Source of the DNA: Rhynchopus sp. YZ270_cl-10
Taxonomy: Eukaryota
Length of the DNA: 64,000 nt
Direction: 5' to 3'
Assembly (NCBI GenBank): GCA_964035575.1
Contig: OZ037846.1
Coordinates: 496,001 to 560,000, forward strand
Shown: positions 3,752 through 63,651 of the stretch, one piece after another
Numbering within the stretch: position 1 is the first letter of the stretch
How the letters are laid out: the number at the start of each line of letters is the position of its first letter
Notes under the pieces: generated by a model
What the model was told of the DNA's origin: nothing
The model's database searches: none
Seen by the model: the letters and a program-made list of their open reading frames with translations, nothing else
Translations under genes and position numbers: made by a program

Positions 3752-3996
3752 AGTACTTCGCAAATACAAGAAAGAAGCAACAAAAAATAAAACAAAAAAA
3801 CAAATATCTGCAAGCTGCATACGCATGCGCCTCGGAGGTAGATAGTAGACCATATTCTAAACAAAAACCCACACAAAGCTGAAGAAGTTTCAACATTAAA
3901 ACAAGCAAGACACATTTTCACGCATCTCTCGCAACTCACGCGACATAAAAAAAACCACCATTTCTATCCATTTTAAGTCTTCGCTTTCTCTTGTTT

Positions 3997-11530: not shown

Positions 11531-13731
11531 GGGGAATAGTCAGTTATACCCTACCCTTTTTTTGAAATGGTCAGAGATACCCGAAAATAAGTTCAGATAT
11601 ACCCGAAAACCAGAAATAGGGCATAACTGACTATATCTGAACTTATTTTCGGGTATATCTGAACTTTTTTCGGGTATCTCTGAACTTATTTGGGGTACCC
11701 ACTTATTTGGGGGTACCCCCTTTGATTTTTTGCCCAGTGGGTGAGTGACCCACCATGAGGGAATGCGACAGCAGAGACAGTATTGAAGCAGCATGGTATG
11801 ATTTTCACCCCTCTACCCCACACACAGTTACTTTTAGTGGGGGTAAATACCCGCAAACCCGCAAACCCTTATACATGGTCCCTCGCTTCGCTTGGGAACC
11901 ATTAGTGCAGCAGGAAACTCTCTGTAGCGTGAAAAAAGGCTACCTTATTTCGCGGAAATACATAGTTATTACCACTTTTTTCATTAACCTCACCCTTCCC
12001 GACTACTGCGTTTGTACACCATACTTAATCACACCCCACATTTACACTCATCACAGGATCGTGAAATCTGAACTGCATCCGTGATTGCGATGAGCGCCGC
12101 TCTCCGACATTCAACAACTCAAAATACAAGGCTTCACCCAAATCAATCTATTCTAGATTTGTTTGTGGACGAAGACCTGGGGGTGGGAACACTTTGTCAG
12201 TCACTGCTATAGCCATTAACCCAGGGAGCATAGCTAGTGCAAGAAATTCGACTTTGGAAACCTTCCGGAAAGTCTGTCCTCTGCTTACGGAGGACGAGGC
12301 ACAAGAAAATATTGCGTTCCCCCAGAAAACCAGTGCACATTTCACACTCCTTGTGGGTGGTCTTGTTGCCTTTTTTGTCAAGTAATTTTGGCCCAGGCAT
12401 GCTCTTGAAGCATGACAATTTAGTGTGTATGGGGCAGGGTGTTGTTTTGTTCTGAATTCTCTTTGTTATAACATCTAAGTCAATCGCGGGTGGTGGTTTG
12501 TGTAGCGTGAGGCACTCTTTTTAGCAAACTTCCTGCGGCTGCTAAAGTGTTATTTCTTCGGATTTAACAACGTACAGCGTAACATAGTGGTTTCGCCTGG
12601 TCGACACAACCTTTGATAGATATGGGATAACCAACCCCCTTCGACCCCTCGTGGGTTCACTGAACAAGCCCTAGTGGTAGTTAAACGCGATTGACATTTA
12701 CATTCCTAGAGATGAAAGAACAAGATAACACTTCTGTACCCGCGCATCAAAATTGTGGAAAACTTTGCACCCCAAACACCCTCAACAACGCCCGCCAAAA
12801 GGCGCCCCTTGTTGCTGGGAGTTGGTTCTCATGATACCTGCACAGCGGGCATTCCTCTGAGTCCAACGCATGTTTGGCCTGTCTGCGGCGTTGTACTTCA
12901 GGTGCACGAAGACAGGGTCTGGTGGTAAATTTTGCGTAGTACTGCGACGTGGTACTGCGTGGGTCTGGGAACCTGGGTACCTGGGTACAGGAAATTTGTT
13001 GTGGAAGACATCAACCACCATGCATTGAGGAGGGTAAGACAGTGGTCGCAGTTTCTACCTGATAGCATTACAACATTTAACTTCTCCACGGGGGTCTTGG
13101 GCCGTTCACTCGGTTCTACCTTGACTACCGGAAGATATTCTTGAGGCCTTTCTGGTCTCTAGTATATCCGGTCTTCCCGAACGGAGGCACACTTTGTGTG
13201 TTACTACGACCTGGCAATTTCCAGCAGTAGGTTAAGTAATCTTTCTTGTAAATTGTTGGAACATTATCTCCTCAGTGCATGAATGCCCCACGTGACTGGA
13301 CACTTTTGTGTTTGTCATGTGGAGCTGTGGTTGCTCTTTCACGACTTTTTTCCTGTTCCTGGGTACCTGTTCCTGGACCTGGGTATCTGGGTATCTGGGT
13401 ATCTGGGTATCTGGGTATCTGGGTATCTGGGTATCTGGGTATCTGGGTATCTGGGCATCTGGGTATACCCGAAAACCAACTTTTTTGGGGTGCCCGAAAA
13501 AAGTTGGCGATATGGTCAGACATGCCCGAAAATAAGTTGAGAAATGGTCAGAGATACCCGAAATACCCGAAAATAAGTTCAGATATTGGTCAGTTATGCC
13601 CTATTTTTGAAAATGGGGCATCTCTGACCAATATCTGAACTTATTTTCGGGTATCTCTGACCAATATCTGAACTTATTTTCGGGTATCTCTGACCATTTC
13701 AAAAAGGGTAGGGCATAACTGACTATTCCCC
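11531..13731. mobile_element. Non-autonomous Mutator-like element carrying the shared core (element 1)
   Basis: Long TIR GGGGAATAGTCAGTTAT.CCCTACCC. 9-bp TSD ATTAATTTT at 11522-11530 and 13732-13740. Subterminal repeats include about 10 copies of GGGTATCT at 13381-13460. Confidence 0.9.
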
Positions 13732-19988: not shown

Positions 19989-21728
19989 CTACTTCACGGA
20001 ACACATCTGAGAGCAACACACAACACTGCACGTCCCAGAAGGAACTGCGTGTGCTGGTGTGCCAACCCCTCCCGCAGCTGTCCATGCCTTAGCAACGTCA
20101 AGGTCAGACTGCTCACCACGCAGGTACCCACGCACGGCAATGTTGTACTCCTCCCAATGCTTCTTCCCACCTATCATGTACATCCACTCGTCAACTGCTT
20201 CTGCTGCAGCACTTAGCTGAGCCATCACTTCTGCCACAACCTGTGCCTCACAACCAGAGGCAACCTCCACCTTGCACGGAAGCAGACGCAGCTGGTGTTC
20301 GCACTCAGCATCGCTGAAGCACATCCTGTTGCACACCACATCACACCCCAGCATACGCCCCACACGTTCCAGCCCGTTCACATCACGCACAAGCTCCCCC
20401 ACCATGCTGAACCGACGCATCACCTCACAACCCATGTCACCACGCAGCACCTTCCCAGTCGCAACACCAGCATTCACCTTCTCACAAAAGCTGTTCGCAC
20501 CCTTCAGAAGCAGGCTTGCTGCGTGCAGTGCAGATGTGGCATGTGTCGCACACTGCTTCGAGGCGTTGAACGAACAGTGGATCCTGTCCCCGATGAACAC
20601 GTCCACCATCCCACGTTTTGTCTCTGTTGCCTGCAGGGTCTTCAGGAGGAGAGTGGTGAAGAAGGAGGAGTAGGTCGCACTGTCCTTCTCCAGCAAATGC
20701 AGGGTGTCCTTCACGTTCAGTGTCAGCAGGGTTGTCTTCACCGAGGACAGACCCAGTGGCAGGCACACTGGCAAGTTTGATGCTCTTGAATGATGGGACT
20801 CTGTGGATGTGTCTGCTGTATCTGTCAGGTCACCCCCTTCGCTCTCTGAGTCCATCCTCTCCACCTCATCCTGAAAAGGCAGACACGTCTTCGGGAGGTA
20901 CGCTTTGTACATGCGCAGGTTCTTCTCCAGTCTCCACAGGGCAGCAGTCATCCCCTCAGGCAGGTCACCCCCATGCACGTCCAGCATCTCCGCCACCTGC
21001 TCCACGTCGTACCCCGCAAGAAGCGACGCAATCTCCTGCACAACGCTGATCGTGCGCCTCATTGACTCCTGCTCCTTCAGCACATTGTGCGCAAACCTGC
21101 GTGTCACGAAGAAGTCGATCAGGAAGACAAAAAGTGTGAAAATGAGGCCAACTTGGGGAAATGATGTCTTGCAGGGTGGGAACTCGCAATCTGCCTTTTC
21201 CTGAATCAGCGCTCTTCTGCTGTGCTCACCTTCGTACGGTGGCAACCCAGGAAGGTCAAACAAACCAAACCTGAAGGATTCCTCACATGACATGAGACAC
21301 AGCCACACCACTGTCGCACCCACGAACCATGCACTGTACCGTGATGGGACTTGCATCACAAGCAATATGTCCACAACCAGGATTAGAAATGGCCAGTTAA
21401 GGTAACCGTAAGTACGTGCCTCCAAATCCCACATGCATATTGCAGTGCCAGAGAAGTACATGATGCCCACCACAAACGTGGTGTTGAGTTGCTGTTTGCA
21501 GAGCATCTTAACAATGACAACGGACCCAGCTGCGATGAATATGCAAGACCCGAGAAGGTGAACAATCTGGTGCTGCACGTCGGTCTTCCCCTGATAAGAA
21601 ACGTAGCAAGCAGCAACCAGGTGAGTCAATGCTGAAACCACAGAGACCGCAAACATGATGGTGCGCTTCTTCACCTCGTCAGCACTGAGAGACCCGTCAA
21701 TGGTCAGTGCGCTGTTCAGGCACCGCAT
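19989..21728 (-). CDS. Multi-TM class III nucleotidyl cyclase-like protein, copy 1
   Basis: About 6 hydrophobic helices, LRMYKAYLP helix, then LLTLNVKDT, VDVFIGDRIHCSFNA, GKVLRGDMG..RFSMVGELV and DEWMY. ATG at 21728 (MRCLNSAL). Confidence 0.85.
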   Translation of the reverse strand: MRCLNSALTIDGSLSADEVKKRTIMFAVSVVSALTHLVAACYVSYQGKTDVQHQIVHLLGSCIFIAAGSVVIVKMLCKQQLNTTFVVGIMYFSGTAICMWDLEARTYGYLNWPFLILVVDILLVMQVPSRYSAWFVGATVVWLCLMSCEESFRFGLFDLPGLPPYEGEHSRRALIQEKADCEFPPCKTSFPQVGLIFTLFVFLIDFFVTRRFAHNVLKEQESMRRTISVVQEIASLLAGYDVEQVAEMLDVHGGDLPEGMTAALWRLEKNLRMYKAYLPKTCLPFQDEVERMDSESEGGDLTDTADTSTESHHSRASNLPVCLPLGLSSVKTTLLTLNVKDTLHLLEKDSATYSSFFTTLLLKTLQATETKRGMVDVFIGDRIHCSFNASKQCATHATSALHAASLLLKGANSFCEKVNAGVATGKVLRGDMGCEVMRRFSMVGELVRDVNGLERVGRMLGCDVVCNRMCFSDAECEHQLRLLPCKVEVASGCEAQVVAEVMAQLSAAAEAVDEWMYMIGGKKHWEEYNIAVRGYLRGEQSDLDVAKAWTAAGGVGTPAHAVPSGTCSVVCCSQMCSVK

Positions 21729-23412
21729 CGTTGGGCTTTTGATCCTCACAAACCTTTGCTATGTGTGGAGCAGGGGTGTGTGGATGTGTGTTGTGTGCAC
21801 TGGTGGGTGGTGTGGGTTCAGTGTTGGGAGATGGACGTAACCACCACAATCGGGGTACTTCACACAGAACTTAATCTATCGCGGGAGGAAGAGAAATAGT
21901 AACCCTGATGGTCAGTAAAAGGGGGGGAGAAAGGCTTTTTCGTTGCTCAATTGCCCTGCTGGAGGTGGGAGGGGTGATTGGGCGTATCTGAGGATAGTAT
22001 TTCTCCGACCGAGCCAAGCAGAAAACGGAAGATGCACAGACACTGCAAGTTCAGACAGTGAAACACCACCCGTCAAGAAGTGGAAGCTCAACAAAACAAA
22101 ATGCTACTAACCAACACCAGACCGACAACTACTTCCATTCCGCTGCAGACGGGGCAGTACTGGTACCAGAGTACTGACCTGGAGAGCATCGGCAGGGGGA
22201 TGTTCTCGAACTGGAGCGACACGACCTTCTGGTGCTTTGGCCTGGTGGACGACCCAGGCATCTGACTGCCCTAATGATTCTGATACTGTCGATCACGCGT
22301 TGCACACTTCCGAGCATCGTCTGAGAGAGGCAATGGAAACAGGCCACAGAGTTGTTTACGTCTTCTGTAAGCTACGCTTTGTAGGTTTAAAAAGAAAGAA
22401 AAGATGGGAAATTGAATTTTTTTTTCTTTGAAGATGTGTGAAGGGGATAAGATAGGTAGGCTTTTGATGTGAAGCAGTTCCACTCCTTGTGAAAGGAGGG
22501 TAGGGGAGGAGGAGGGGAAATAGTTCTGTACAAAAAAAAAAAGCAAAACGAAAAAGAAAGAAAAAAAAGAAGTTGAAAGTGCAAACGCCTCACCGTTCAT
22601 CGGCGGACGCAGGCACTGAAAAAAAAAATTATAAGATAAACCTAAGTCTCTCGTGCTTAGCTTATCTTAAACACAACACGCATAACAATATTTGATCAAA
22701 AAAAAGCTGGTATATGTTGCATAAAACATTGGAGCGTAAACCCTGTCCGTGCAAATGCGAGATACCGTACACCTTCTTGGGTGCAACGGCACAGACAGTT
22801 CTCTGCATGAGGCACGCAAGCAGTGTTTTAGTCTCTTCACAAAAAAAAAAAAAAGAGTAAATTTGAAATACAAAAAAAGCCGCGTTCATTTCTTCTCTAT
22901 TATCACCAATCATCCTTTGGAGCGAAAGACGCCACGGAAGTGGTCATAATTTCTCCAAGCAGAGTGGGGGTTTTTTTGTTCTCTTTTTTTTTGAGCAAAA
23001 AAAAAAAAAAAAAAAAGAAAAAAAAAGGGGGGAAAAAAAACTGGTGTGTTGCTACCTCATTTATGTGATGCCCCATTGACTTCTCCATTTAAAAGCAAAA
23101 GTGAAGCTGGTGTGCAAAACGCCTCTGACTGGCACTGACACTCCGCGGGGTTTGAAAATGTTTGTTGTTATGTTTGTACTCTTTGTTTTTGCTATTTTGT
23201 GTTTGTGTTTGTTTAGCTTTTTTAGATCCTTAACCAAAGCGATGTGCGAACTTTAATGTAGTTTCCGGCTTACTCTGTCGCAGTGGTTGTACGGGAACTT
23301 TCAGTGCTTTTTCAAAAAAAAAAAAAGGAAAAAAAGAAAAAAGGAAAAAAAAAGGGGGGAGAAAAAGTCAAAATAACCTTGTTTTTCAAAATAAATGTCA
23401 AAATAAAAAATT

Positions 23413-23483
23413 CTGGTTTCAGCGGTCTGCTCCCTGACCAGGAAAAAGCCCTTCGACCGCGCTCATCAGAAGGAGCAAGGGCT
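23413..23483 (-). ncRNA. Predicted non-circularly permuted hammerhead ribozyme, copy 1
   Basis: Minus strand AGCCCUU-GCUCCUU-CUGAUGA-GC-GCGGUC-G-AAGGGCU-UUUUC-CUGG-UC-AGGGAGC-A-GACCGC-U-GAAA-CCAG. All core motifs and stems I-III are present. Confidence 0.72.
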
Positions 23484-23719
23484 AAAAAATAAAAAGGAGG
23501 GGGAAAAGGTAGGATACAATAAAAAGCTTTTTATGTGAAAGCAATTTTATTGGTTACAATGACGAAAAAACAGCAGCAGGAATTTCATGTTCTTTTTGCT
23601 TTTGTGTACAGGTATCGTAGCACGCCAACCTGTGGGCAGACAGTTTTCACAATATATGGGAAACGTGTCGTATGATGAGGTGTTCTTCACACAATTCGTT
23701 ATGTTTATGGTGCTCCTAC

Positions 23720-26064
23720 TAAAAAGTAACGAGGCGCACAAACCTTAAAGCATGACAACAACCGTTATTTGTGTTTCAGTGATTCCAATAAAGGGTCCTT
23801 GAATCAGAGAAGGAATTTACCAGGCTCCTTTGTCGAACTAGCCAGGTTCGAGACAAGCATGATATTAGGTTTTGGGCCGCATGTTTGTGCTGTTCAAATG
23901 GAAATATATTGGAGGACACAGGAATATACAAATAGTTATTATACATAGCGCTCTAATTAGAGTATTAGGGTATAATTAGAGTCTGGGATTTTGGGCCAAG
24001 TCAGTTAGAGTCCAGTTAGAGTATAATTAGAGTCGCTTTTCTTCAATTAGACTATAATTAGAGTGCAGTTAGAGCATAATTAGACTCTAACTACACTCTA
24101 ATTATAGTCTAATTAGAGTAAAACAACAGGCTTCTTGTAGGTGCAAACGCCGTAAGGAACCGGTTCCCCTAAGGTTCCTCTGTAGGACCCAGGTGCCCAG
24201 ATACCCACATAGCTGAAAATAAGACTTGGGGAACCGAGTTCTCAGCCGGACTGGGACACAATATGTGAAGGCGCTGTGGTCCGCCTGAAAGCGGGTCGGG
24301 GACCCGGTCGCGGGAGGGTGGGGGCCTAGTCCTAGTCCTACTGTACCTAGTACCCAGTACCGGGACTCGGGACCCGGCTTATTCTCAGCTATGGGCACCC
24401 AGGTACTCAGACCCGCGCAGTGGCACATGCCCTCAAGTGTGTGTGCCCCATACATTAGGGAATGCGATGCAAAAACTCTATGTGCACCTCCGGTGCAACG
24501 CCGCAGACAGGCCAAGCAGCGTTGGACTCAGAGGAATGCCTGCTGTGCAGGTATCAAACATGAGAAACTCCCAGCAACAAGGGGCGCCTTTTGGCGGGCA
24601 TTATTGAAGGTGTTTGGGGTGCAAAATTTTCTACAAATGTTGATGCGCGGGTACAGAAGTGGTGTCTTGTTCTTTCATCTGTAGGAATGTAAATATCAAT
24701 CGAATTTAACTACCACTAAGGGGTCGAAGGGGTAATCCCAGTATCAAAGGCTGTGTTGACGGGAAATCTATAGCGAGCATACGTTCATTTCAGCCGAAGA
24801 AATACTACTTATGAACCCAGGAGAGATCCAAGCCTCGCGTTGAACAACTACCCGCGATCGACAATACCAAAAGAGAATTCATAACAAAACAACACTGCCC
24901 CATACACACTAAATAGCCATGCTTCAAGTGCATGCCCCTGGGCCAAAATTCCTGTGCTAAAAAGGCAACAAGACCATCCACAAGGAGTGTGAATTGTGCA
25001 CTGGTTTTCTGGGGGAACAAACAATATTTTCTTGTGTCTGGTTCTCTGCAAGCAGAGAACAGACTATCTGGATTACAAAGTAGAATTTCTTGCACTAGCT
25101 ATGACCCCTGGGTTGATGGCTATAGCATTGATTGATGTGCCCCTCTTTATTGACCCTCTTATAGGACTCTAATTAGACTCTAATTAGAGTCCAGTTAGAG
25201 TATTAGAGTTCAGTTAGAGTTTTAAAGACTCTAATTATACTCGAACTGCCGACTCTAATTATCTAGTTAGAGTCTAATTGGAGCGCTATGTATAAGTTAT
25301 TGTTGCAGTATCTTCTTACTTTATTTGCGACGTAAAAGAAAATGGGGGGGAAACATAGGATCAGACAAGAAAATGCATGTTGCAATCGCGCGTAAAGCTA
25401 ACGATAAGCCACCCTGCAACACGGTTCATCGAGGCTCGTTGACCTACCTCAGGCTAATTTATTCAAAACAAAACCTTTTGGGGGCTTGTGGAAAAATGCC
25501 TTCTATCGTGAAGTGTGGTATCTATAGATGGACTTCATGAAGTACGTAGGTATTGCAAGTCTTGCGTTTCTATTTAAAAATTAACGAGGCACACAAACCT
25601 TAAAGCATGACAACAACCGTTATTTGTGTTTCAGTGATTCCAATAAAGGGTCCTTGAATCAGAGAAGGAATTTACCAGGCTCCTTTGTCGAACTAACCAG
25701 GTTCGAGACAAGCATGATATTAGGTTTTGGGCCGCATGTTTGTGCTGTTCAAATGGAAATATATTGGAGGACACAAGAATATACAAATAGTTATTGTTGC
25801 AGTATCTTCTTACTTTATCTGCGACGTAAAAGAAAATGGGGGAAAAAATCAAAGGATCAGACAAGAAAATGCATGTTGCAATCGCGCGTAAAGCTAACGA
25901 TAAGCCACCCTGCAACACGGTTCATCGAGGCTCGTTGACCTACCTCAGGCTAACTTATTCAAAACAAAACCTTTTGGGGGCTTGTGGAAAAATGCCTTCT
26001 ATCGTGAAGTGTGGTATCTTTAGATGGACTTCATGAAGTACGTAGGTATTGCAAGTCTTGCGTT
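23720..26064. repeat. About 490-bp tandem duplication inside the hammerhead element; first copy split by a MITE
   Basis: 23720-23939 plus 25301-25568 matches 25576-26064 with few substitutions. Confidence 0.85.
23940..25294. mobile_element. Non-autonomous TIR element with TAT..ATA ends and 6-bp TSD (IS3EU-like), carrying the shared core (element 3)
   Basis: TIR TATACATAGCGCTC. TSD AGTTAT at 23934-23939 and 25295-25300. The empty site CAAATAGTTATTGTTGC is visible near 25784. CTCTAATTAGAG-type subterminal arrays. Confidence 0.88.
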
Positions 26065-26543
26065 CCTTCTTGTTCAGGGGGAGGAAACTTAAAATAAATT
26101 GAAAAAGACCCTGCTTCTCAAGGGGTCGTTCAAGGTTTTAAATATAAAGGAGTACTGTTTGTTTTTGTTTCTGGCTATGTACATACACTTTTGTGTAGCT
26201 CAATAACCTATTGCGCCCGGCGCCTCTCTAGTCCAGCAGGCCGTATACCGTAGGCAACGCGGTGACATAGTGATAGGGGAGTTTGAAAATGTTTGTTGTT
26301 ATGTTTGTACTCTTTGTTTTTGCTATTTTGTGTTTGTGTTTGTTTAGCTTTTTTAGATCCTTAACCAAAGCGATGTGCGAACTTTAATGTAGTTTCCGGC
26401 TTACTCTGTCGCAGTGGTTGTACGGGAACTTTCAGTGCTTTTTCAAAAAAAAAAAAAGGAAAAAAAGAAAAAAGGAAAAAAAAAGGGGGGAGAAAAAGTC
26501 AAAATAACCTTGTTTTTCAAAATAAATGTCAAAATAAAAAATT

Positions 26544-26614
26544 CTGGTTTCAGCGGTCTGCTCCCTGACCAGGAAAAAGCCCTTCGACCGCGCTCATCAG
26601 AAGGAGCAAGGGCT
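26544..26614 (-). ncRNA. Predicted non-circularly permuted hammerhead ribozyme, copy 2
   Basis: Identical to 23413-23483. Confidence 0.72.
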
Positions 26615-27659
26615 AAAAAATAAAAAGGAGGGGGAAAAGGTAGGATACAATAAAAAGCTTTTTATGTGAAAGCAATTTTATTGGTTACAATGACGAAAAA
26701 ACAGCAGCAGGAATTTCATGTTCTTTTTGCTTTTGTGTGACTCCGCGGGGTTATCGGACCCTCCCCGGAATGCTGCACTTTGGAGTTGCTGACAGGGAAA
26801 CACAAACGGGGGTGGATTGTGTTTTTGTATAGTTTCTTTTCCTTTTTTTTGATAAATTGTTGGAGTAGTGTAGTTGCCTCGGTTGTGTTGCCACAGTTGT
26901 GCAATCTCCGCTGTGCAGCATTCCGGGGAGGGTTCGGTAACCCCTTTTTTTTTTTTGAATAATCAAGCCTTGCCAAATAGAAATGGAAAATGGCGGATGG
27001 TGCCCGCTTTAGCGGATTTGGTTTGCTTACTTCGACTTTACATGCACCTCACCTCACATTCATCGGTGAAATAAACACAAATTATTTTGCGGTGCAATAA
27101 ACGGAAAAGTGTTTTATTGTCTTTCATTTTATGCATTTATGCTTCACTGTCGTATCCTGAAGTCGTTTTCTATTATTTCATTTTTTTTTTTTGGCCTTTT
27201 TTATTTGCTTCTGCTCTTGTCGTTGCTTTTTTGTTGTATCTCTTTCCTTCCTACTAAGCCATCCCCTCCTATCTAAGAGGTGAAACCAGCCGCGCCACCG
27301 ATGTCGTGAGCTGCTCACGTGTCAGCTTGCTGAACTTAGGGTCCGTTTTGTCTATGTACTTGGCGTACAACTTCTGTCTCAGATCGCGCCTGCAGTCCTT
27401 CCGCTCATAAAACCTATTTTTTTGTTGTTTCGACAAACACCTAAAAGGAACTATCTGAAAATCTGACATCCTTATTTCACAAAAAGAGTAGTTGAAACCT
27501 AAAACGCATCTCAGTCAAGCTCATGCAAAAGGGTGGGACGTGGGCGACAATACAAAATGCCTTTTGATACAAGATCTCAACGATTAAGATATTATTTTTC
27601 AATCGAAAGATGGAGTTTTTATCCACTCTCTACACAGATCTCAAAGAGAAATACGGTAA

Positions 27660-29251: not shown

Positions 29252-29369
29252 CCCCCCCCCCCCCCCATCCCCTCCCTTTCCTCCCCTTCATGCAGAGTAA
29301 CGCGCCCTTCCTCTCCAACCCCATCTACAAAACTATCAAGCACAATTAAACAGAGCACAAAAAGCACTT

Positions 29370-31841
29370 TCAAAAAAAAAAAAAAACATTTTCAAACCCT
29401 TCATACATTCTGTTATTGCTCTCCTTCTCCTGCTCTGTATTGATGCGGTGCGTGGTAGGTTTAGTCAACCATTTGGCGGTTGCCTTTTTGCTTATTTCTG
29501 CTTCTCTTTGGACCGACTCGTAGAACACCCTGTTTACCAGCATATCTTCTTCCGGCTTATCAAACACCACCTTTTTCACCTTCGCAAGCACACTCACCAG
29601 CTGGCTTTCATCCGCTTTGGTACGCCGTTCATGCCGCATCGTTGTTTCTTGATCATGCAGTCTCAAGGTAAGATTCCTTTGCGATAATGGATCCAATTTT
29701 GGGCCGCGATCCACTAAGGGTAAACTTTTTCGTTTCGGAGGACTTAACAATCTTGTAGAAACCTTCAGTGGAGGCAATGCTGTTGACGCTGTTGAACGCA
29801 ACGCAACAACACGACATCCTTTTGCACTACTCCCACCACCACCACCACCACCACTCTTCACAGGCTGTGTAGACTGTCTTCTTGCGTAGTGACCACGTAA
29901 CACCCTCTCCTCTTGGTGGGTTAAGAGGGCGTCGGAAATGCGAGAGTCATAGTCGCTGTGGAGAACGTCGCGTTGGTCTTCAGTTTTTTCTAAAATGTCG
30001 AGCATCTCAAGGAGGGTGTCTCCAGCGTCGCGGAAGGGCTGTCCGGTCAGTTTTTTGCGTTGTTCTTTGAATTTATCGATTTTGCGGGTATGCATTTCAA
30101 TCTGTTTGTCCTTCTCCCGCAGCGCGGTGTCCCGCTCTTCGCGAAGAGCAGAAAGCTTCTGCGACTTCACCCTCGCCTCCTCAAGCAAGCGTACATCCTC
30201 CTCTTCCGTCTCAATCCTTCCGGTCCGCGATTCCCTGCGGAGCCGAGCGTGCGCTGCATCGACCTGCCGCTCTGCAGCCGTATTCTGTTTGTTCACCATC
30301 AAGGTATGCTCTGCGTGCAGACCCCTTGCGATACGTTCTTCATCTGCAGACAATGTTTCTGGTGGAGATTCGGAAAGAACTGCCTTCAGTGTTGACTCCT
30401 TAGAAGAAAGCTCTGTCTGGATGCGATCTTTTCTTGAAGATGCTGAGTCCGGTTGGGCGTCGATATTGATAAGCTTCTGCCGGAGTGTCCCCACCTCCTC
30501 TGATAAGGCGGCAGCTGCTTCTGCACGGCGTCTTTCAAAATCGGCGTTGGCGCGGAGCTTCGTCTTCACTGCATTGCGCAGCTCCCGCTCCGCAATAATC
30601 TGTTCAGAGTCTCCCTCAGTACGCTTCTTCCCAGAATCGCCCCGTTCTGGATATGGTGGTGGTATGTCACCATCAATATGCGTTTCCTCTGTCTCACCTA
30701 GAGTATTGGAGTCCTTTTTCTCGGACTCTGAAATGGAATCATTTTCAGGCATCTCGTCTGTTTCCTCTTTCGGGGTCTCCTCTGGTGGTGGTGGTGGTGG
30801 TGGTGCCACCTCCTCTGGCGAAGTGCTCTCTGCTGGCGTTTCCGTCTGCTGTGGGTCCTCTGGTGGTGGTGGTGATGGTGGCGGTGCAACCTCCTCTGGC
30901 GAAGTGTCCTCACCAGGTGGCGGTGCTGGCGGTTCGGTCTGCTGTGGTTCTGGGGGTGGTGGTGGTTGCGTCCCCCCCTCACCCTCGTCGTTCGGTGGTG
31001 CGGCAGTATCGGTAGGCCCAGAAGGGGCCTCCCCTGTTGCCGTTCCCTCCTCCGTTGCTTCGGGTGTGGGGATGTCTGTCGCGGGGGGTGGTGATGCTTC
31101 CTCTGCAGTCTCTGCCTCTGTGACAGACGGCTCTGTTGGTGGAGCGGTCTCCTGCGTTTCCTTCGTCTCCTGTGTCTCTTGTGTGTTCTGCGTCTCCTGC
31201 GTCGCTGCCACCTCAGCATCGGGTGGTGTCTCCTTCTCGTCCTCTGCAGGGGGCTCCGGCTCTGGTGGGGTTTCCTCTCCACCTTGAGCAGTGTCCTCTG
31301 CAGGCGGCGTAGCTGCCGTGTTGTCCAGCGCTGTTGTCTCTGCTGGCGTTTCATCTGATTGCTTTGTCTCCTCAGGTGGTGGCGGTGGTGGTGCCACTTC
31401 CTCTGGTGAAGTGTCCTCACCAGGTGTGCTCTCTGCTGGAGTTTCCGTCTGCTGTGGGTCCTCTGGTGGCGGTGGTGGTGGTGGTGGTGCAACCTCCTCT
31501 GGTGAAGTGTCCTCACCAGGTGTGCTTTCTGCTGGCGTTTCCGTCGACTGTGGCTCCTCTGATGGTGGCGGCTGTGTCTCTTCGACAGCTCCCTCTTCTT
31601 CAGGTACTGTTTCGGCCACGGCTGTTTCCTCAGGAGGTGGTGCCTCCGCTTCCGTTTCCGCTTCCGGTGCCTTTTCAGCATCAGCCTGCGTTGTGTGTTC
31701 CTGCCCTGCCTCCTGCGGTGTCTCCTGCGCCTCGCCTCCAGTCTCCTCCGTTACTGTCTCCCCCTCTGCAGGTGTGTCGCCTGCAGGCGCTACGTCTTCC
31801 TGCGTGCAGACCTGCTCTTTCCCCTCATCCTCATCTTCCAT
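29370..31841 (-). CDS. Pro/Glu/Thr-rich repeat plus coiled-coil protein, 823 aa
   Basis: Long ORF with repeats of TPAESTPGEDTSPEEVAPPPPP, a heptad-rich middle and short C-terminal helical repeats. The extreme C-terminus (VFFFF) may be unspliced intron. Confidence 0.75.
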   Translation of the reverse strand: MEDEDEGKEQVCTQEDVAPAGDTPAEGETVTEETGGEAQETPQEAGQEHTTQADAEKAPEAETEAEAPPPEETAVAETVPEEEGAVEETQPPPSEEPQSTETPAESTPGEDTSPEEVAPPPPPPPPEDPQQTETPAESTPGEDTSPEEVAPPPPPPEETKQSDETPAETTALDNTAATPPAEDTAQGGEETPPEPEPPAEDEKETPPDAEVAATQETQNTQETQETKETQETAPPTEPSVTEAETAEEASPPPATDIPTPEATEEGTATGEAPSGPTDTAAPPNDEGEGGTQPPPPPEPQQTEPPAPPPGEDTSPEEVAPPPSPPPPEDPQQTETPAESTSPEEVAPPPPPPPEETPKEETDEMPENDSISESEKKDSNTLGETEETHIDGDIPPPYPERGDSGKKRTEGDSEQIIAERELRNAVKTKLRANADFERRRAEAAAALSEEVGTLRQKLINIDAQPDSASSRKDRIQTELSSKESTLKAVLSESPPETLSADEERIARGLHAEHTLMVNKQNTAAERQVDAAHARLRRESRTGRIETEEEDVRLLEEARVKSQKLSALREERDTALREKDKQIEMHTRKIDKFKEQRKKLTGQPFRDAGDTLLEMLDILEKTEDQRDVLHSDYDSRISDALLTHQEERVLRGHYARRQSTQPVKSGGGGGGGSSAKGCRVVALRSTASTALPPLKVSTRLLSPPKRKSLPLVDRGPKLDPLSQRNLTLRLHDQETTMRHERRTKADESQLVSVLAKVKKVVFDKPEEDMLVNRVFYESVQREAEISKKATAKWLTKPTTHRINTEQEKESNNRMYEGFENVFFFF

Positions 31842-32517: not shown

Positions 32518-33504
32518 TCAGACAATCGAGGTCACAGGGGACTCGTTCAGGCCGCACTCGTTCGAGCCGTAGGACACACGGATGTATCCAGACTCTCCCC
32601 AGGTGGTTCCCCAGGAGTTCTTGATGATCCAGTAGTCAGCGCCGTATCCGACAATGAGCACTCCGTGGTCAAGCTGGCATCCGAAGATTCCACAGCAGGT
32701 CGTCAGCACTCCGCCCGAGTACGACTGCCACTTCTGCGCGTCCACGGCGATGGAGAGGGGTCCTCCGGTCGACACGAAGGTCTTCATCTGTGCCTCGGTG
32801 TGGGTGATGTCCTTGTACGACGAGATCGTGGCCCCAACAGGCTTCCCAGTCAGAGACTCGCAGGTGTGGCGGATCCCGGTCCCCGACTTGTAGGGGTACG
32901 AGTCCTCAGTCACAATGTCTCCGTTGTGGTTCGAGATCAGCCACTTCAGGGCGTTGTCCATCAGACCGCCGTTGCAGCCCTGGTCGACCTTGTCGCACGA
33001 CACAAGCTCCTGCTCCGACACAGAGGTCAGGGTCTTCCCCGACAGCTGCCACTGGCCCTCAATGCCTCCCGTCGTGGAGAACGCCCAGCACGATCCGCAC
33101 TGTGCCTGGTTCTTCACGTGGGTCACGGCACCAGCCGACCTCCAGTCCTTCGAGTCGGCGGCGGCAGCCACCTGCTCCTCAGTGAACATGGCAGGGGGCG
33201 ACTGCTTCTTCTCCACCTTCATGTTGTGGTACGACTTGAACTCAGCAGCAGACATGTCGGAGAACACGTTCATCCCGAACTGGGCTCCCTTGGTCTGCTC
33301 CTTCTCGAAACGCGACGCCTTCAGCATGTTGGCGGTGAAGATCCCGTAGCGGCGCTGCTCCTCCGCGATGCTCGAGTACTGCTTCCCGTGGTCGTTCTTG
33401 AAGGTGTTCCACAGTAGCTGCGAGTTCGCACGCACGTACTGCTCAGAGTAGCCGTGTGCCTGGCTCGCCAGGAGGGCACACACAATAAGGGACAGGGTGC
33501 GCAT
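32518..33504 (-). CDS. Cathepsin L-like papain-family (C1A) cysteine protease with I29 prodomain, 328 aa
   Basis: Signal peptide MRTLSLIVCALLASQAHG, ERFNIN/GNFD-like prodomain, QCGSCWAFS, LDHGVLIVGYG and KNSWG. ATG at 33504. Confidence 0.96.
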   Translation of the reverse strand: MRTLSLIVCALLASQAHGYSEQYVRANSQLLWNTFKNDHGKQYSSIAEEQRRYGIFTANMLKASRFEKEQTKGAQFGMNVFSDMSAAEFKSYHNMKVEKKQSPPAMFTEEQVAAAADSKDWRSAGAVTHVKNQAQCGSCWAFSTTGGIEGQWQLSGKTLTSVSEQELVSCDKVDQGCNGGLMDNALKWLISNHNGDIVTEDSYPYKSGTGIRHTCESLTGKPVGATISSYKDITHTEAQMKTFVSTGGPLSIAVDAQKWQSYSGGVLTTCCGIFGCQLDHGVLIVGYGADYWIIKNSWGTTWGESGYIRVSYGSNECGLNESPVTSIV

Positions 33505-33974: not shown

Positions 33975-35708
33975 CTACTTCACGGAACACATCTGAGGGC
34001 AACACACAACACTGCACGTCCCAGAAGGAACTGCGTTTGCTGGTGTGCCAACCCCTCCCGCAGCTGTCCATGCCATAGCAACGTCAAGGTCAGACTGCTC
34101 ACCACGTAGGTACCCACGCACGGCAATGTTGTACTCCTCCCAATGCTTCTTCCCACCTATCATGTACATCCACTCGTCAGCTGAAACTGCTGTGTCCTCT
34201 TCTTTCGCAATCAGTTCCGCCACAACCTGTGCCTCACAGCCAGAAGCAACCTCCACCTTGCACGGAAGCAGACGCAGCTGGTGTTCGCACTCAGCATCGC
34301 TGAAGCACATCCTGTTGCACACCACATCACACCCCAGCATACGCCCCACACGTTCCAGCCCGTTCACATCACGCACAAGCTCCCCCACCATGCTGAACCG
34401 ACGCATCACCTCGCAACCCATGTCACCACGCAGCACCTTCCCAGTCGCAACACCAGCATTCACCTTCTCACAAAAGCTGCTCGCACCCTTCAGAAGCAGG
34501 CTTGCTGCATGCAGTGCAGATGTGGCATGTGTCGCACACTGCTTCGAGGCGTTGAACGAACAGTGGATCCTGTCCCCGATGAACACGTCCACCATCCCAC
34601 GTCTTGTCTCTGTTGCCTGCAGGGTCTTCAGGAGGAGAGTGGTGAAGAAGGAGGAGTAGGTCGCACTGTCCTTCTCCAGCAAATGCAAGGTGTCCTTCAC
34701 GTTCAGTGTCAGCAGGGTTGTCTTGACCGAGGACAGACCCAGTGGCAGGCACACTGGCAAGTTTGATACTCTCGAATGATAGGACTCTGTGGATGTACCC
34801 GAACACTCTACCACGTCGCCGTCTTCACTATCTGCCTGCATCGTCTTGCCCACCTCATCCTGAAACGGCAGACACGTCTTCGGGAGGTACGCTTTGTACA
34901 TGCGCAGGTTCTTCTCCAGTCTCCACAGGGCAGCAGTCATCCCCTCAGGCAGGTCACCCCCATGCACGTCCAGCATCTCCGCCACCTGCTCCACGTCGTA
35001 CCCCGCAAGAAGCGACGCAATCTCCTGCACAACGCTGATCGTGCGCCTCATTGACTCCTGCTCCTTCAGCACATTGTGCGCAAACCTGCGTGTTACCAAG
35101 AAGTCCACCACGAAGACAGCAAGAGTGGAAAGGGAGCCAAATACGGAAAACGATGTCGCGCAGGGAAGGAACTCGCAGTCTGCTTTTTCTATAACCGCCG
35201 CTCTCCTGCTGTGCGCACCTTCGTACGGTGGCAACCCAGGGATGTCAAACAAGCCAAACCTGAAGGATTCCTCACATGCCATCAGGAGAAGCCACACCAC
35301 TGTCGCACCCACGAAACCTGCACTGCATCGTTCTGGCACTTGCATCACAAGCAACATGTCCACAACCAGGATCAGAATTGGCCAGGCAAAGTAATCATAC
35401 GTGCGTGCGTGCCAGTCCCACAAGCAGATTCCAATGCCAACGAGGTACATGATGCCCACCACAAACGTGGTGTGCAGTTGCTGCTTGCAGAGCACCTTAA
35501 CAATGCCAACAAACCCAGCTGTGACGATGGAGCAGGACCCGAGCATGTTAACAATCCGGTGTTGCATTCTCTTCTCCTTAAAAAATGCCGAAGCAACCAA
35601 AGTCGCCACAGCTGCATACACACAGAACGCAAACATGATGGTGCGCATCTTCGCCTCGACAGCACTGAGAGACCCGTCAATGGTCAGTGCGCTGTTCAGG
35701 CACCGCAT
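33975..35708 (-). CDS. Multi-TM class III nucleotidyl cyclase-like protein, copy 2
   Basis: Paralog of 19989-21728 with near-identical C-terminal half. Confidence 0.85.
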   Translation of the reverse strand: MRCLNSALTIDGSLSAVEAKMRTIMFAFCVYAAVATLVASAFFKEKRMQHRIVNMLGSCSIVTAGFVGIVKVLCKQQLHTTFVVGIMYLVGIGICLWDWHARTYDYFAWPILILVVDMLLVMQVPERCSAGFVGATVVWLLLMACEESFRFGLFDIPGLPPYEGAHSRRAAVIEKADCEFLPCATSFSVFGSLSTLAVFVVDFLVTRRFAHNVLKEQESMRRTISVVQEIASLLAGYDVEQVAEMLDVHGGDLPEGMTAALWRLEKNLRMYKAYLPKTCLPFQDEVGKTMQADSEDGDVVECSGTSTESYHSRVSNLPVCLPLGLSSVKTTLLTLNVKDTLHLLEKDSATYSSFFTTLLLKTLQATETRRGMVDVFIGDRIHCSFNASKQCATHATSALHAASLLLKGASSFCEKVNAGVATGKVLRGDMGCEVMRRFSMVGELVRDVNGLERVGRMLGCDVVCNRMCFSDAECEHQLRLLPCKVEVASGCEAQVVAELIAKEEDTAVSADEWMYMIGGKKHWEEYNIAVRGYLRGEQSDLDVAMAWTAAGGVGTPANAVPSGTCSVVCCPQMCSVK

Positions 35709-36211
35709 CGTTGGGCTTTTGATCCTCACAAACCTTTGCTATGTGTGGAGCAGGGGTGTGTGATGTGTGTTGTGTGCACTGGTGGGTGGTGTGGGTACAG
35801 TGTTGGGAGATAGATGTGACCACCACAATCGGGGTACTTTGCACAGAACTTAATCTCACACGGGACAGGGTTCGCATTTTAGTGAACACGATTGTTTTGG
35901 TGATGGTGTGTCGGAGTAAATAGTGTGCGGAGCAGGGGACGTCAGGTGGGATCAAGACGTACTCTCTGACGTGCGTGCATCGCGGAGACTAAAGGGAGTA
36001 TGGCGAGGATAATAGTACAATTTCTCCCCCTTTTTTTGTGCAAAATGTGTGAAAACAGTGAGACTCGCCGTGTGCCATGTGTTCATAGGCGTCGTCCTTC
36101 GCGTCCACCTCGGCCTTCTTCTCCATAAGTGTCGTGGATTGAAAAACGTTGCCTTTCTGCTATTGAACATGAAGCAAGCGCCAGATGTAAATCTGAGCAA
36201 ACACAACAGTG

Positions 36212-37945
36212 CTACTTCACGGAACAGATCTGAGGGCAACACACAACACTGCACGTCCCAGAAGGAACTGCGTGTGCTGGTGTGCCAACCCCTCCCGCAG
36301 CTGTCCATGCCATAGCAACGTCAAGGTCAGACTGCTCACCACGTAGGTACCCACGCACGGCAATGTTGTACTCCTCCCAATGCTTCTTCCCACCTATCAT
36401 GTACATCCACTCGTCAGCTGAAACTGCCGTGTCCTCTTCTTTCGCAATCAGTTCCGCCACAACCTGTGCCTCACAGCCAGAAGCAACCTCCACCTTGCAC
36501 GGAAGCAGACGCAGCTGGTGTTCGCACTCAGCATCGCTGAAGCACATCCTGTTGCACACCACATCACACCCCAGCATACGCCCCACACGTTCCAGCCCGT
36601 TCACATCACGCACAAGCTCCCCCACCATGCTGAACCGACGCATCACCTCACAACCCATGTCACCACGCAGCACCTTCCCAGTCGCAACACCAGCATTCAC
36701 CTTCTCACAAAAGCTGCTCGCACCCTTCAGAAGCAGGCTTGCTGCATGCAGTGCAGATGTGGCATGTGTCGCACACTGCTTCGAGGCGTTGAACGAACAG
36801 TGGATCCTGTCCCCGATGAACACGTCCACCATCCCACGTTTTGTCTCTGTTGCCTGCAGGGTCTTCAGGAGGAGAGTGGTGAAGAAGGAGGAGTAGGTCG
36901 CACTGTCCTTCTCCAGCAAATGCAGGGTGTCCTTCACGTTCAGTGTCAGCAGGGTTGTCTTCACCGAGGACAGACCCAGTGGCAGGCACACTGGCAAGTT
37001 CACACTTCTCGAATGTGAGGACTCTGTGGATGTGACTGCTGTCTCTGTCAGGTCACTCCCTTCGCTCTCTGAGTCCATCCTCTCCACCTCATCCTGAAAA
37101 GGCAGACACGTCTTCGGGAGGTACGCTTTGTACATGCGCAGGTTCTTCTCCAGTCTCCACAGGGCAGCAGTCATCCCCTCAGGCAGGTCACCCCCATGCA
37201 CGTCCAGCATCTCCGCCACCTGCTCCACGTCGTACCCCGCAAGAAGCGACGCAATCTCCTGCACAACGCTGATCGTGCGCCTCATTGACTCCTGCTCCTT
37301 CAGCACGTTGCGCGCAAACCTGCGTGTCACGAAGAAGTCGATCAGGAAGACAGCAAGGGAGGAAAGGGAGCCATGTGGGGGAAATGGTGTCTTGCAGGGA
37401 AGGAACTCGCAGTCTGCCTTTTCGATAGCCGCCGCTCTCCTGCTGTGTTCACCTTCGTACGGCAACAACCCAGGAAGGTCAAATAGGCCAAACCTGAAGG
37501 ATTCCTCACATGCCATCAGGAGAAGCCACACCACTGTCGCACCCACGAACCATACACTGTACCGTGATGGGACTTGCATCACAAGCAACATGTCCACGAG
37601 TAAGATCAGTATTGGCCAGGTAAGGTATTCATTAGTACGTGCGTCCAAATCCCACAAGCAGATTCCAATGACAAATAAGTACATGATGCCCACCACAAAC
37701 GTGGTGTGCAGTTGCTGCTTGCAGAGCACCTTAACAATGACAACAGACGCAGCTGTGACGAATATGCAAGAGCCTACTTCGTGAACAAGCCGGTCTTGTA
37801 TGCCATTCTTCTGCTCCTGAAGCAAAGAAAAAACAACAGTCAAGACAGCTGCGTACACACAGAACGCAAACATGGTGGTGCGCTTCTTCACCTCGTCAGC
37901 ACTGAGAGACCCGTCAATGGTCAGTGCGCTGTTCAGGCACCGCAT
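36212..37945 (-). CDS. Multi-TM class III nucleotidyl cyclase-like protein, copy 3
   Basis: Paralog with intact ORF. Confidence 0.85.
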   Translation of the reverse strand: MRCLNSALTIDGSLSADEVKKRTTMFAFCVYAAVLTVVFSLLQEQKNGIQDRLVHEVGSCIFVTAASVVIVKVLCKQQLHTTFVVGIMYLFVIGICLWDLDARTNEYLTWPILILLVDMLLVMQVPSRYSVWFVGATVVWLLLMACEESFRFGLFDLPGLLPYEGEHSRRAAAIEKADCEFLPCKTPFPPHGSLSSLAVFLIDFFVTRRFARNVLKEQESMRRTISVVQEIASLLAGYDVEQVAEMLDVHGGDLPEGMTAALWRLEKNLRMYKAYLPKTCLPFQDEVERMDSESEGSDLTETAVTSTESSHSRSVNLPVCLPLGLSSVKTTLLTLNVKDTLHLLEKDSATYSSFFTTLLLKTLQATETKRGMVDVFIGDRIHCSFNASKQCATHATSALHAASLLLKGASSFCEKVNAGVATGKVLRGDMGCEVMRRFSMVGELVRDVNGLERVGRMLGCDVVCNRMCFSDAECEHQLRLLPCKVEVASGCEAQVVAELIAKEEDTAVSADEWMYMIGGKKHWEEYNIAVRGYLRGEQSDLDVAMAWTAAGGVGTPAHAVPSGTCSVVCCPQICSVK

Positions 37946-38164
37946 CGTTGGGCTTTTGATCCTCACAAACCTTTGCTGTGTGTGGAGCAGGGGTGTGTGG
38001 ATGTGTGTTGTGTGCACTGGTGGGTGGTGTGGGTTCAGTGTTGGGAGATGGACGTAACCACCACAATAGGGGTACTTTGCACAGAACTTAATCTCACACG
38101 GTACAGGGTGCGCATTTTAGTGGACACGGCTGTTTTGGTGATGGTGTGGGAGTACAGACAGTAG

Positions 38165-39284: not shown

Positions 39285-41021
39285 CTACTTCACGGAACAG
39301 ATCTGAGAGCAACACACAACACTGCACGTCCCAGAAGGAACTGCGTTTGCTGGTGTGCCAACCCCTCCCGCAGCTGTCCATGCCTCAGCAACGTCAAGGT
39401 CAGACTGCTCACCACGCAGGTACCCACGCACGGTAGTGTTGTACTCCTCCCAATGCTTCTTCCCACCTATCATGTACATCCACTCGTCAACTGCTCCTGC
39501 TGGATCACTCAGCTGAGCCATTACTTCCGCCACAACCTGTGCCTCACAACCAGAGGCAACCTCCACCTTGCACGGAAGCAGACGCAGCTGGTGTTCGCAC
39601 TCAGCATCGCTGAAGCACATCCTGTTGCACACCACATCACACCCCAGCATGCGCCCCACACGTTCCAGCCCGTTCACATCACGCACAAGCTCCCCCACCA
39701 TGCTGAACCGACGCATCACCTCACAACCCATGTCACCACGCAGCACCTTCCCAGTCGCAACACCAGCATTCACCTTCTCACAAAAGCTGCTCGCACCCTT
39801 CAGAAGCAGGCTTGCTGCGTGCAGTGCAGATGTGGCATGTGTCGCACACTGCTTCGAGGCGTTGAACGAACAGTGGATCCTGTCCCCGATGAACACGTCC
39901 ACCATCCCACGTCTTGTCTCTGTTGCCTGCAGGGTCTTCAGGAGGAGAGTGGTGAAGAAGGAGGAATAGGTCGCACTGTCCTTCTCCAGCAAATGCAGGG
40001 TGTCCTTCACGTTCAGTGTCAGCAGGGTTGCCTTTACTGAGGACAGACCCAGTGGCAGGCACACTGGCAAGTTCTCATTTCTCGTATGTGAGGACTCTGT
40101 GGATGTATCTGCTGTTTCTGTCACGTCGCCCCCTTCGCTCTCTGAGTCCATCCTCTCCACCTCATCCTGAAAAGGCAGACACGTCTTCGGGAGGTACGCT
40201 TTGTACATGCGCAGGTTCTTCTCCAGTCTCCACAGGGCAGCAGTCATCCCCTCAGGCAGGTCACCCCCATGCACGTCCAGCATCTCCGCCACCTGCTCCA
40301 CGTCGTACCCCGCAAGAAGCGACGCAATCTCCTGCACAACGCTGATCGTGCGTCTCATTGACTCCTGCTCCTTCAGCACATTGTGCGCAAACCTGCGTGT
40401 CACGAAGAAGTCGATCATGAAGACAGCAAGAGTGGAAAACAGGCCAAGTGGGGGAAATGATGTCTTGCAGGGCAAGAACTCGCAGTCTGCCTTTTCCAAA
40501 ATCACCGCTCTCCTGCCGTGCTCACCTTCGTACGGCAACAACCCAGGAAGGTCAAACAAGCCAAACCTGAAGGATTCCTCACATGCCATCAGGAGAAGCC
40601 ACACCACTGTCGCACCCACGAACCATGCACTGTACCGTGATGGGACTTGCATCACAAGCAACATGTCCACAACCAGGATTATAATTGGCCAGGCAAAGTA
40701 ACTATAAGTGCGTGAGTGCAAATCCCACAAGCAGACACCTACGCTGAAAGAGTAGATATACCCCACCACAAACGTGGTGTGCAGTTGCTGCTTGCAGAGC
40801 ACCTTCACAATGGCAACAAACCCAAGGATGACAACTATGCAAGACCCGAGTTCGCTAACCATCCGGTGTTGCACGTCAATCTTCTGTCCCTGGGTCAGCA
40901 AAGCAAAAACAACAGGCAAGACAGCTGAAACCACACAGAACACAAACATGATGGTGCGCTTCTTCACCTCGTCAGCACTGAGAGACCCGTCAATGGTCAG
41001 TGCGCTGTTCAGGCACCGCAT
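39285..41021 (-). CDS. Multi-TM class III nucleotidyl cyclase-like protein, copy 4
   Basis: Paralog with intact ORF. Confidence 0.85.
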   Translation of the reverse strand: MRCLNSALTIDGSLSADEVKKRTIMFVFCVVSAVLPVVFALLTQGQKIDVQHRMVSELGSCIVVILGFVAIVKVLCKQQLHTTFVVGYIYSFSVGVCLWDLHSRTYSYFAWPIIILVVDMLLVMQVPSRYSAWFVGATVVWLLLMACEESFRFGLFDLPGLLPYEGEHGRRAVILEKADCEFLPCKTSFPPLGLFSTLAVFMIDFFVTRRFAHNVLKEQESMRRTISVVQEIASLLAGYDVEQVAEMLDVHGGDLPEGMTAALWRLEKNLRMYKAYLPKTCLPFQDEVERMDSESEGGDVTETADTSTESSHTRNENLPVCLPLGLSSVKATLLTLNVKDTLHLLEKDSATYSSFFTTLLLKTLQATETRRGMVDVFIGDRIHCSFNASKQCATHATSALHAASLLLKGASSFCEKVNAGVATGKVLRGDMGCEVMRRFSMVGELVRDVNGLERVGRMLGCDVVCNRMCFSDAECEHQLRLLPCKVEVASGCEAQVVAEVMAQLSDPAGAVDEWMYMIGGKKHWEEYNTTVRGYLRGEQSDLDVAEAWTAAGGVGTPANAVPSGTCSVVCCSQICSVK

Positions 41022-63635: not shown

Positions 63636-63651
63636 ATAACAAACAAAACAA

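Follow-up and report, generated by a model that had tools for sequence, protein, structure and literature searches.

What kind of element sets two identical, ribozyme-bearing repeats around a body without recognizable genes, and by what route could it move? The question is raised by a 64,000-nucleotide stretch of DNA from Rhynchopus sp. YZ270_cl-10 (assembly GCA_964035575.1, contig OZ037846.1, positions 496,001 to 560,000 of the forward strand), which we refer to as the window and whose positions are used throughout. A sequence-only reading had proposed that positions 23140-26752 hold a mobile unit of the retrozyme or Penelope-like kind. We find at this locus a mobile, noncoding, multicopy unit whose target was truly duplicated and whose terminal repeats each contain a hammerhead fold. 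The fold is very probably that of a type-CSG hammerhead, and retrotransposition by target priming is highly likely. The explanation that we favor, with a little better than even confidence, is that the unit is a nonautonomous Penelope-like partial tandem (of the Naiad or Chlamys type) that carries type-CSG hammerheads and was inserted by target priming.

The Unit Is Bounded by Identical Repeats and a Target Duplication

Self-comparison of the window gave twin 458-bp repeats that are 100% identical at an offset of 3131, just as had been claimed, and an exact 13-bp duplication where one of 11-13 bp had been described. The parts of the insertion are these:

23140..23152, unstranded: left copy of the 13-bp duplication, whose last 3 bases double as the element's last 3 bases
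23150..23607, minus strand: 3' terminal repeat, 458 bp, resembling a pseudo-long terminal repeat (pseudo-LTR) and identical to 26281-26738
23150..23224, minus strand: A/C-rich stretch (63% A and 20% C) with which the element ends on its 3' side, the putative start region of reverse transcription
23608..26280, minus strand: noncoding body, 2673 bp (1312 bp without a nested miniature inverted-repeat transposable element, or MITE), delimited by self-comparison and a Pfam scan
26281..26738, minus strand: 5' terminal repeat, 458 bp
26740..26752, unstranded: right copy of the 13-bp duplication, preceded by 1 extra base at 26739

In plus-strand order the left copy of the duplication overlaps the first 3 bases of the left repeat, a microhomology at the 3' junction of the element, and the duplication thus consists of 10 bp plus a 3-bp overlap. 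The 13-mer occurs twice in the window, against a chance expectation of 0.07 with one mismatch allowed, and two copies were present in none of 100 shuffles; these figures, together with the contig evidence presented below, rule out a chance match as its origin. The duplicated target is G+C-rich and lies within a dispersed repeat, not a microsatellite. No poly(A) or simple-repeat tail was found at the 3' junction, and no Penelope-type tail of 30-40 bp was recognized in this single copy.

Empty Target Sites and Other Copies of the Element

We compared the window with contigs of six public sequencing runs out of 22 (X1, X4, X6, X7, X8, and X9), the last of which gave no matches. Sequence words of the window were partly present in 12 runs from 8 studies, and half or more of them in 5; one run may be that from which the window was assembled. 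Two features of the host DNA are needed to follow the comparison:

23112..23152, unstranded: short multicopy host motif split by the insertion, with contig depth rising at 23112
26747..26944, unstranded: neighboring host element of 198 bp with 39-bp inverted ends, the left of which overlaps the duplicated target

Contigs that match the window up to 23149 and then pass into sequence like the right flank, with the element absent, numbered 12 in X1, 10 in X4, and 1 in X8, and 7 further X1 contigs make the same element-free passage from 23152. These contigs are empty paralogous sites of the target. Because they hold the 13 bp once, the 13 bp was duplicated on insertion. Meanwhile, contigs matching the body were far deeper than those of the flank (2380-4462 versus 250-605 in X1; 1126-1758 versus 75-243 in X4), a ratio of roughly 4 to 23 that is a rough sign of several copies and not a copy number. 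In addition, matching in three other X1 contigs and one X4 contig, all diverged, ends at 23150 and gives way to unlike flanks, and hence the 3' boundary at 23150 is common to other loci. The empty paralogues, the multicopy contigs, and the other loci ending at 23150 bear out the proposal that the unit is mobile.

A junction was counted as bridged only under a 31-base rule. By this measure the junction from repeat to body is bridged by contigs of X4, X6, and X7 (three of the four runs compared there), some of them with variants of their own; the junction from body to repeat is reached by 25-30 bases.

Two observations concern the target itself. The motif at 23112-23152 continues into the inverted end of the very high-copy 198-bp element (26753-26944), and contigs are stacked very deeply over 26839-26995. 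The empty paralogues place the point of insertion within a small hairpin, at the edge between stem and loop.

A Predicted Hammerhead with Its Blocks in the Order C-S-G

Each repeat had been said to contain a hammerhead. One is indeed present in both, but its noncircular block order, C-S-G, had been missed. The ribozymes are predicted at the following positions:

23413..23483, minus strand: type-CSG hammerhead, copy A, predicted to cut after C 23436
26544..26614, minus strand: type-CSG hammerhead, copy B, predicted to cut after 26567

The hammerhead is neither type I nor type III, and the full fold is obtained only in the order C-S-G. In copy A, stem I is formed by 23476-23470 with 23435-23429 (7 bp, up to 9) and stem III by 23441-23437 with 23417-23413 (5 bp, opened by an A-U pair), and stem II (23462-23455 with 23427-23421) begins with a G-U pair and a 1-nt bulge that are followed by 6 bp. 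The core comprises CUGAUGA (23469-23463), GAAA (23420-23417), and a GUC cleavage site. A fourth helix of 7 bp, the I-II helix (23483-23477 with 23453-23447), connects the region 5' of stem I with the region 3' of stem II. Judged as a type-CSG RNA, the sequence has block C followed by S and then G in both copies; CUGAnGA, GAAA, and UH, with the A-U pair that opens stem III, all in place; and helices of 7 (up to 9), 6+1, 5, and 7 bp. At the closing pair of stem II next to the core, the G-U with its bulge is replaced by G-C (at 23421) in the end of one X4 contig, which also changes a U-G pair of stem I to U-A.

A descriptor covering all six block orders returned two matches in the whole window, both of them CSG with stems of 9/7/5 and both in the terminal repeats, and on 100 two-strand shuffles it returned no CSG match and two matches of any order. 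As a positive control, a similar descriptor was run on 35 phage loci, and in 3 of these viral contigs it recovered ordinary hammerheads of type II, two or three per locus. Rfam gave no matches in the whole window at the gathering threshold; at E 10 it gave 11 matches in 23000-27000, none of them to a ribozyme, and 7 of the 11 fell on a palindrome of the MITE near 23950-24130. The C-S-G order is invisible to standard covariance models and descriptors.

A type I reading of the same sequence was ruled out by GAAG in place of GAAA and by the absence of a proper stem III.

Two further contigs touch on the ribozyme. A 2417-nt contig of X4, of flank-like depth, matches the window only at 23416-23476 (10 differences in 61 bases), and may represent a second, diverged CSG family, possibly that of a helper element. 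A contig of X6 matches up to 23412, which is 24 nt from the predicted cut, and then runs into 255 bases of unlike sequence; this loose end may be that of a 5'-truncated copy beginning just downstream of the ribozyme.

A Nested Element and an Internal Duplication

The body of the unit is itself composite:

23940..25294, unstranded: MITE-like DNA element of 1355 bp nested in the body; it has terminal inverted repeats and subterminal repeats of 11 bp, and is flanked by a 6-bp duplication
23720..26067, unstranded: internal tandem duplication of ~495 bp, copy 1 being 23720-23939 plus 25295-25574 and copy 2 being 25575-26067

The 6-bp duplication around the MITE lies at 23934-23939 and 25295-25300. 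The distance from cut to cut is now 3131 nt and would have been 1770 nt before the 1355-bp MITE and its 6-bp duplication were added, in agreement with the unit lengths given earlier. The tandem duplication of ~495 bp had been overlooked. Its copies are identical at 217 of 221 and 263 of 276 aligned columns, copy 1 is split by the MITE, and a 525-nt contig of X7 goes once round the ~495-bp unit with the MITE absent.

The inner part of the MITE is 78% like 12197-12907 and 53514-54229, which belong to a pair of 1.45-kb repeats (11971-13415 and 53285-54726) that are 93% identical to each other.

Coding Content and Genomic Neighborhood

All 56 stop-to-stop frames of at least 40 codons that overlap 23100-26950 lack a Pfam match (E 0.01), the longest being 141 amino acids (aa), and the view that the unit holds no convincing open reading frame (ORF) therefore stands. 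No reverse transcriptase, GIY-YIG domain, or endonuclease was found in a Pfam scan of 165 frames of the window (the 56 of the element, 93 further frames, and 16 long ORFs). Five frames of the window gave a convincing match to Pfam, and every one of them is on the minus strand; the ribozymes lie on that strand too and have the same sense as the genes, as had been noted. Among these neighbors, the papain-like protease at 32518-33504 has as its best organism-named matches proteins of Diplonema papillatum (53-60% identity), and the host is therefore probably a diplonemid of another species. In D. papillatum, genes are arranged in unidirectional clusters that are likely cotranscribed (PMC10161547). 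The window contains no tRNA genes.

We also observed the following around the unit. Five copies of a gene (19989-21749, 33975-35729, 36212-38017, 39285-41042, and 48993-50795) are 90-93% identical in DNA; they encode a protein of 580-600 aa that has no Pfam match and many close paralogues on megabase contigs, and the ESM Atlas gives for it a weak lead (0.88) to adenylate or guanylate cyclases. A protein of 1481 aa is encoded by 3997-8442 on the minus strand; it combines a zinc finger, VWA, and ankyrin repeats with an ADP-ribosyltransferase domain at the C terminus. Tandem arrays occupy 55920-56877 and 62688-63636. Finally, the end of an 823-aa ORF (29349-29399) resembles, in inverted orientation, the element's 3' end, with 14 bases exact and 51 bases at 73%; none of 100 shuffles had two matches. 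This stretch may be a decayed 3'-end fragment or a chance product of low complexity.

Resemblance to Penelope-Like Elements

Penelope-like elements (PLEs) form partial tandems with pseudo-LTRs, carry hammerheads inside them, and have nonautonomous derivatives such as MRC1 (PMC8557442). The shape of our unit, in which pseudo-LTRs that would derive from a partial tandem enclose a hammerhead in the sense orientation, fits this description. Of the other marks of the group, a PLE-clade reverse transcriptase, with or without GIY-YIG, is present in none of the 56 frames of the element. Because it encodes no protein that Pfam recognizes, the unit could only be a nonautonomous Penelope-like derivative. 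The earlier Penelope-like label thus survives as the best guess from the pseudo-LTR and hammerhead architecture, but has no support from a reverse transcriptase or GIY-YIG domain in the window.

Craig et al. 2021 reported that Naiad and most Chlamys elements lack canonical hammerheads, and flagged "half cores" 35-50 nt apart (PMC8557442). The half cores of our unit are 42 nt apart. We read by eye the supplementary file of Naiad and Chlamys consensus sequences, covering every one of the 81 passages with CGAAAC, 54 of the 62 that contain CTGATGA, and the full set of 21 for three further core variants; motifs broken across lines can escape such a reading, and the folds were drawn visually, not by computation. 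In the nematode section (parts 13-16), eight passages appear to form a complete type-CSG hammerhead with an I-II helix. Stem I measures 4-6 bp in these, stem II 4-5 bp, stem III 5-12 bp, and the I-II helix 7-16 bp. Parts 13-16 list eight nematode Naiads, and the eight passages differ in their stems; three are named by the header that follows (Naiad-1, -2, and -3_Nbra) and the other five are placed by file order only.

In several Naiads from outside the nematodes (Acropora, Octopus, a record in part 12 and, less clearly, one in part 8), the knotted ring seems by eye to be opened right after CUGAUGA. These opened-ring Naiads (parts 8-12 and 24; PMC8557442) would begin with stem II's 5' strand and end with stem I and its CUGAUGA, an arrangement that breaks the assumption of an uninterrupted block C made by Eckert et al.

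A Proposed Route of Insertion and Its Alternatives

We propose the following route for the Penelope-like unit. The minus strand would be transcribed by read-through of the co-oriented gene cluster, and the ribozymes would cut after 26567 and 23436 to release an RNA of 3131 nt (1770 nt if the MITE is left out); this RNA may then circularize. A helper endonuclease would make staggered nicks 13 bp apart in the target, and the nicked 3' end would form 3 base pairs with the A/C-rich region, which lies 286 nt downstream of the cut. Reverse transcription, primed inside the RNA, would then copy one whole unit plus 458 nt and so leave two repeats. The insertion extends 286 nt 3' of the last cut site and 172 nt 5' of the first, and therefore a linear RNA running from cut to cut cannot by itself have templated it. 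The template must thus have been a circle or an uncut RNA that was longer or tandem. Between a circle and an uncut tandem transcript the balance is about even, with the circle slightly favored for a donor of 1.15 units such as this one. More tentatively, and as a possibility to which we give less than even weight, the knotted CSG hammerhead may be the ordinary ribozyme of a Penelope-like lineage thought to lack one, from nematode Naiads to diplonemids. Our element would be a nonautonomous diplonemid member of that lineage, excising itself from polycistronic RNA of the host and multiplying by way of an RNA circle made by its ribozymes.

Several observations weigh against this proposal. As to descent, what connects the unit with Naiads is a common layout only, which does not show common ancestry; Naiads are reported only from animals (PMC8557442); and no CSG fold was seen by eye in the Chlamys passages with CGAAAC. 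As to a helper, the sequence-only reading had pointed to linked Penelope reverse transcriptase or GIY-YIG ORFs as something to look for, and the 165 frames contain none, and the words "Penelope" and "GIY-YIG" are absent from four of the seven supplements of the D. papillatum genome paper (PMC10161547). As to the target, it is neither A+T-rich nor a microsatellite, and its G+C-rich sequence with 3-nt homology differs from the A+T-rich, homology-free sites of the anole element. The anole Penelope bears on the circle as well: ribozyme cleavage is dispensable in vitro and uncut RNA is the main template (PMC11167929), which counts against that step. As to the ribozyme, this copy has a G10.1-U11.1 pair with a bulge at the base of stem II, the family variation consists of one-sided pair changes from a single contig, and in the nested fold of lowest energy (z -1.3) the cleavage region is taken up in pairing with CUGA, a possible misfold. 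Finally, the left outer junction is reached by 27 bases, short of the 31-base rule, and no contig among the matches listed bridges the right outer junction.

The same element, with the same ribozyme and the same target priming, could instead have been served by a non-LTR retrotransposon with a restriction-like endonuclease (RLE; Hero, CRE/SLACS, or R2 type) that copied past its own end on circular or tandem RNA. We consider such a helper unlikely, though it is the chief rival to a Penelope-like one, and have raised its weight because of the target: the 13-bp duplication is G+C-rich, is accompanied by the 3-nt homology at the 3' junction, and lies within a multicopy motif. A duplication with junction homology of this kind is often left by target-primed non-LTR insertion. 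Annotated SLACS, R2, LINE-1, and jockey reverse transcriptases are recorded for D. papillatum (PMC10161547). On the other hand, terminal direct repeats from partial tandems are a hallmark of Penelope, the intact-block CSG layout matches, by eye, that of nematode Naiads, and the 3' junction is without a poly(A) or simple-repeat tail. If the unit is read on the plus strand, it becomes a nonautonomous LTR element (a terminal-repeat retrotransposon in miniature, a large retrotransposon derivative, or a plant-type LTR retrozyme) with the ribozyme antisense. The left repeat can then be read as beginning with TG (23153) and ending with CA (23610), a stretch of purines lies ahead of the right repeat, and the stretch after the left repeat has what we take to be a likeness to an initiator-tRNA primer site. 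However, the right repeat ends 3 bases before CA, the primer-like site lacks the initial TGG, the duplication is of 10-13 bp and not 4-6, and the ribozyme is on the opposite strand and is not type III. We therefore judge an LTR element very unlikely.

We attach only slight probability to the idea that the element is real and mobile but that the ribozyme is a dead or irrelevant passenger, copying having proceeded through uncut tandem transcripts only. The G-U pair and bulge of stem II, the competing fold, and the dispensability of cleavage in the anole system in vitro (PMC11167929) are in keeping with it; yet neither repeat has lost any part of the core or any of the four helices, and the pairs are kept in the variants seen among the contigs. 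Moreover, the 2417-nt contig of X4 retains the ribozyme region alone (23416-23476, with its 10 differences), which suggests selection on that region. Least probable of all is that two separate copies of a short element, a local duplication, or a misassembly mimics one unit. The complete identity of the repeats would suit such an artifact, and none of the listed contigs spans the whole unit or bridges an outer junction under the 31-base rule. Against it, a single duplication brackets both repeats and is present in one copy in the empty paralogues, the junction from repeat to body lies on deep contigs and is bridged in three of the four runs compared (with variants particular to some of them), and the protein of a neighboring gene is on record from a 1.56-Mb contig.

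Comparison with Known Systems

In its predicted working the unit resembles retrozymes. Those of plants are LTR elements with type III hammerheads, 4-bp duplications, a primer-binding site, and a polypurine tract, and those of animals are non-LTR elements with type I hammerheads in tandem units of 150-300 bp (PMC7761336). Like both, our unit is noncoding, has direct repeats with one hammerhead apiece, and could yield an RNA of unit length able to circularize (PMC7761336; bioRxiv 10.64898/2026.07.22.740005). It differs in that its ribozyme is type-CSG, not III or I, its unit is much longer, its duplication is not the 4 bp of plants, and the ribozyme strand has neither primer-binding site nor polypurine tract. 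The element thus lies outside both definitions, and the earlier retrozyme label is not supported, even though the predicted mode of action is retrozyme-like.

Among Penelope-like elements, those of Adineta make duplications of 8-10 bp and have moved, in trans, unrelated DNA lying between pseudo-LTRs (PMC3846280); the duplication found here is likewise short (10 bp plus the 3-bp overlap). In the Poseidon element of Anolis carolinensis, reverse transcription starts inside the RNA, at an A/C-rich region downstream of the hammerhead (PMC11167929), as we propose for our unit. Poseidon differs from our unit in its autonomy, in the canonical minimal form of its hammerhead, in nicking DNA that is A+T-rich, and in needing no homology for priming (PMC11167929). 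Like Naiad and Chlamys elements, the unit has direct repeats of the partial-tandem kind and a sense ribozyme near its 3' end; unlike them, it has no ORF, its target is G+C-rich and not a microsatellite, and its host is likely a diplonemid.

Type-CSG itself is known from two similar soil-metagenome sequences, designated CSG-1 and CSG-2, which cleave at 0.004 and 0.026 per minute (PMC10085705). Eckert et al. 2023 found no RNA of this type in the genomes of known organisms and gave no host or role for the pair, and they graded the evidence for its biological relevance as weaker (PMC10085705). Pattern scans of our own yielded no relative that folds as CSG among at least 155 viral loci, exact patterns being apt to miss most real variants (the first scan gave at least 120 loci and covered about half of the collection, and later ones gave 0, 5, 29, and 1). 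Nor did any of 84 metagenome loci from an exact pattern scan fold as CSG or resemble the element by blastn. In the mainly open-access literature that was covered, no CSG hammerhead is described from the genome of a eukaryote or from a retroelement.

With this locus, type-CSG gains a likely host lineage and a mobile-element setting, where previously it had no host, and the published Naiad supplement adds, by eye, eight further cases from nature whose stems differ. It becomes possible to test directly the report that Naiads lack canonical hammerheads. The locus is also a pointer to a family of ribozyme-bearing retroelements in diplonemids, where cotranscribed gene clusters would feed the family. 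New here are the likely diplonemid protist host, the intact-block CSG order in a mobile element, and the clean anatomy of the insertion.

Set beside CSG-1 and CSG-2, the ribozyme of our unit has the same C-S-G order, the same core of CUGAUGA, GAAA, and GUC, and the same stems I, II, and III in ~70 nt, and like them was found in DNA. It also shares with the validated pair the short link from stem I to stem II and the additional I-II helix, which is placed alike in both (their supplementary Figure 10). The sequences of the stems are unrelated, however, and the linker before stem III is 5 nt here and 2 nt there. At the base of stem II, the search pattern of Eckert et al. has a G-C pair next to the core (PMC10085705), whereas our copy has G-U and a bulge. 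And unlike the soil pair, the ribozyme described here resides in a mobile element of a eukaryote genome.

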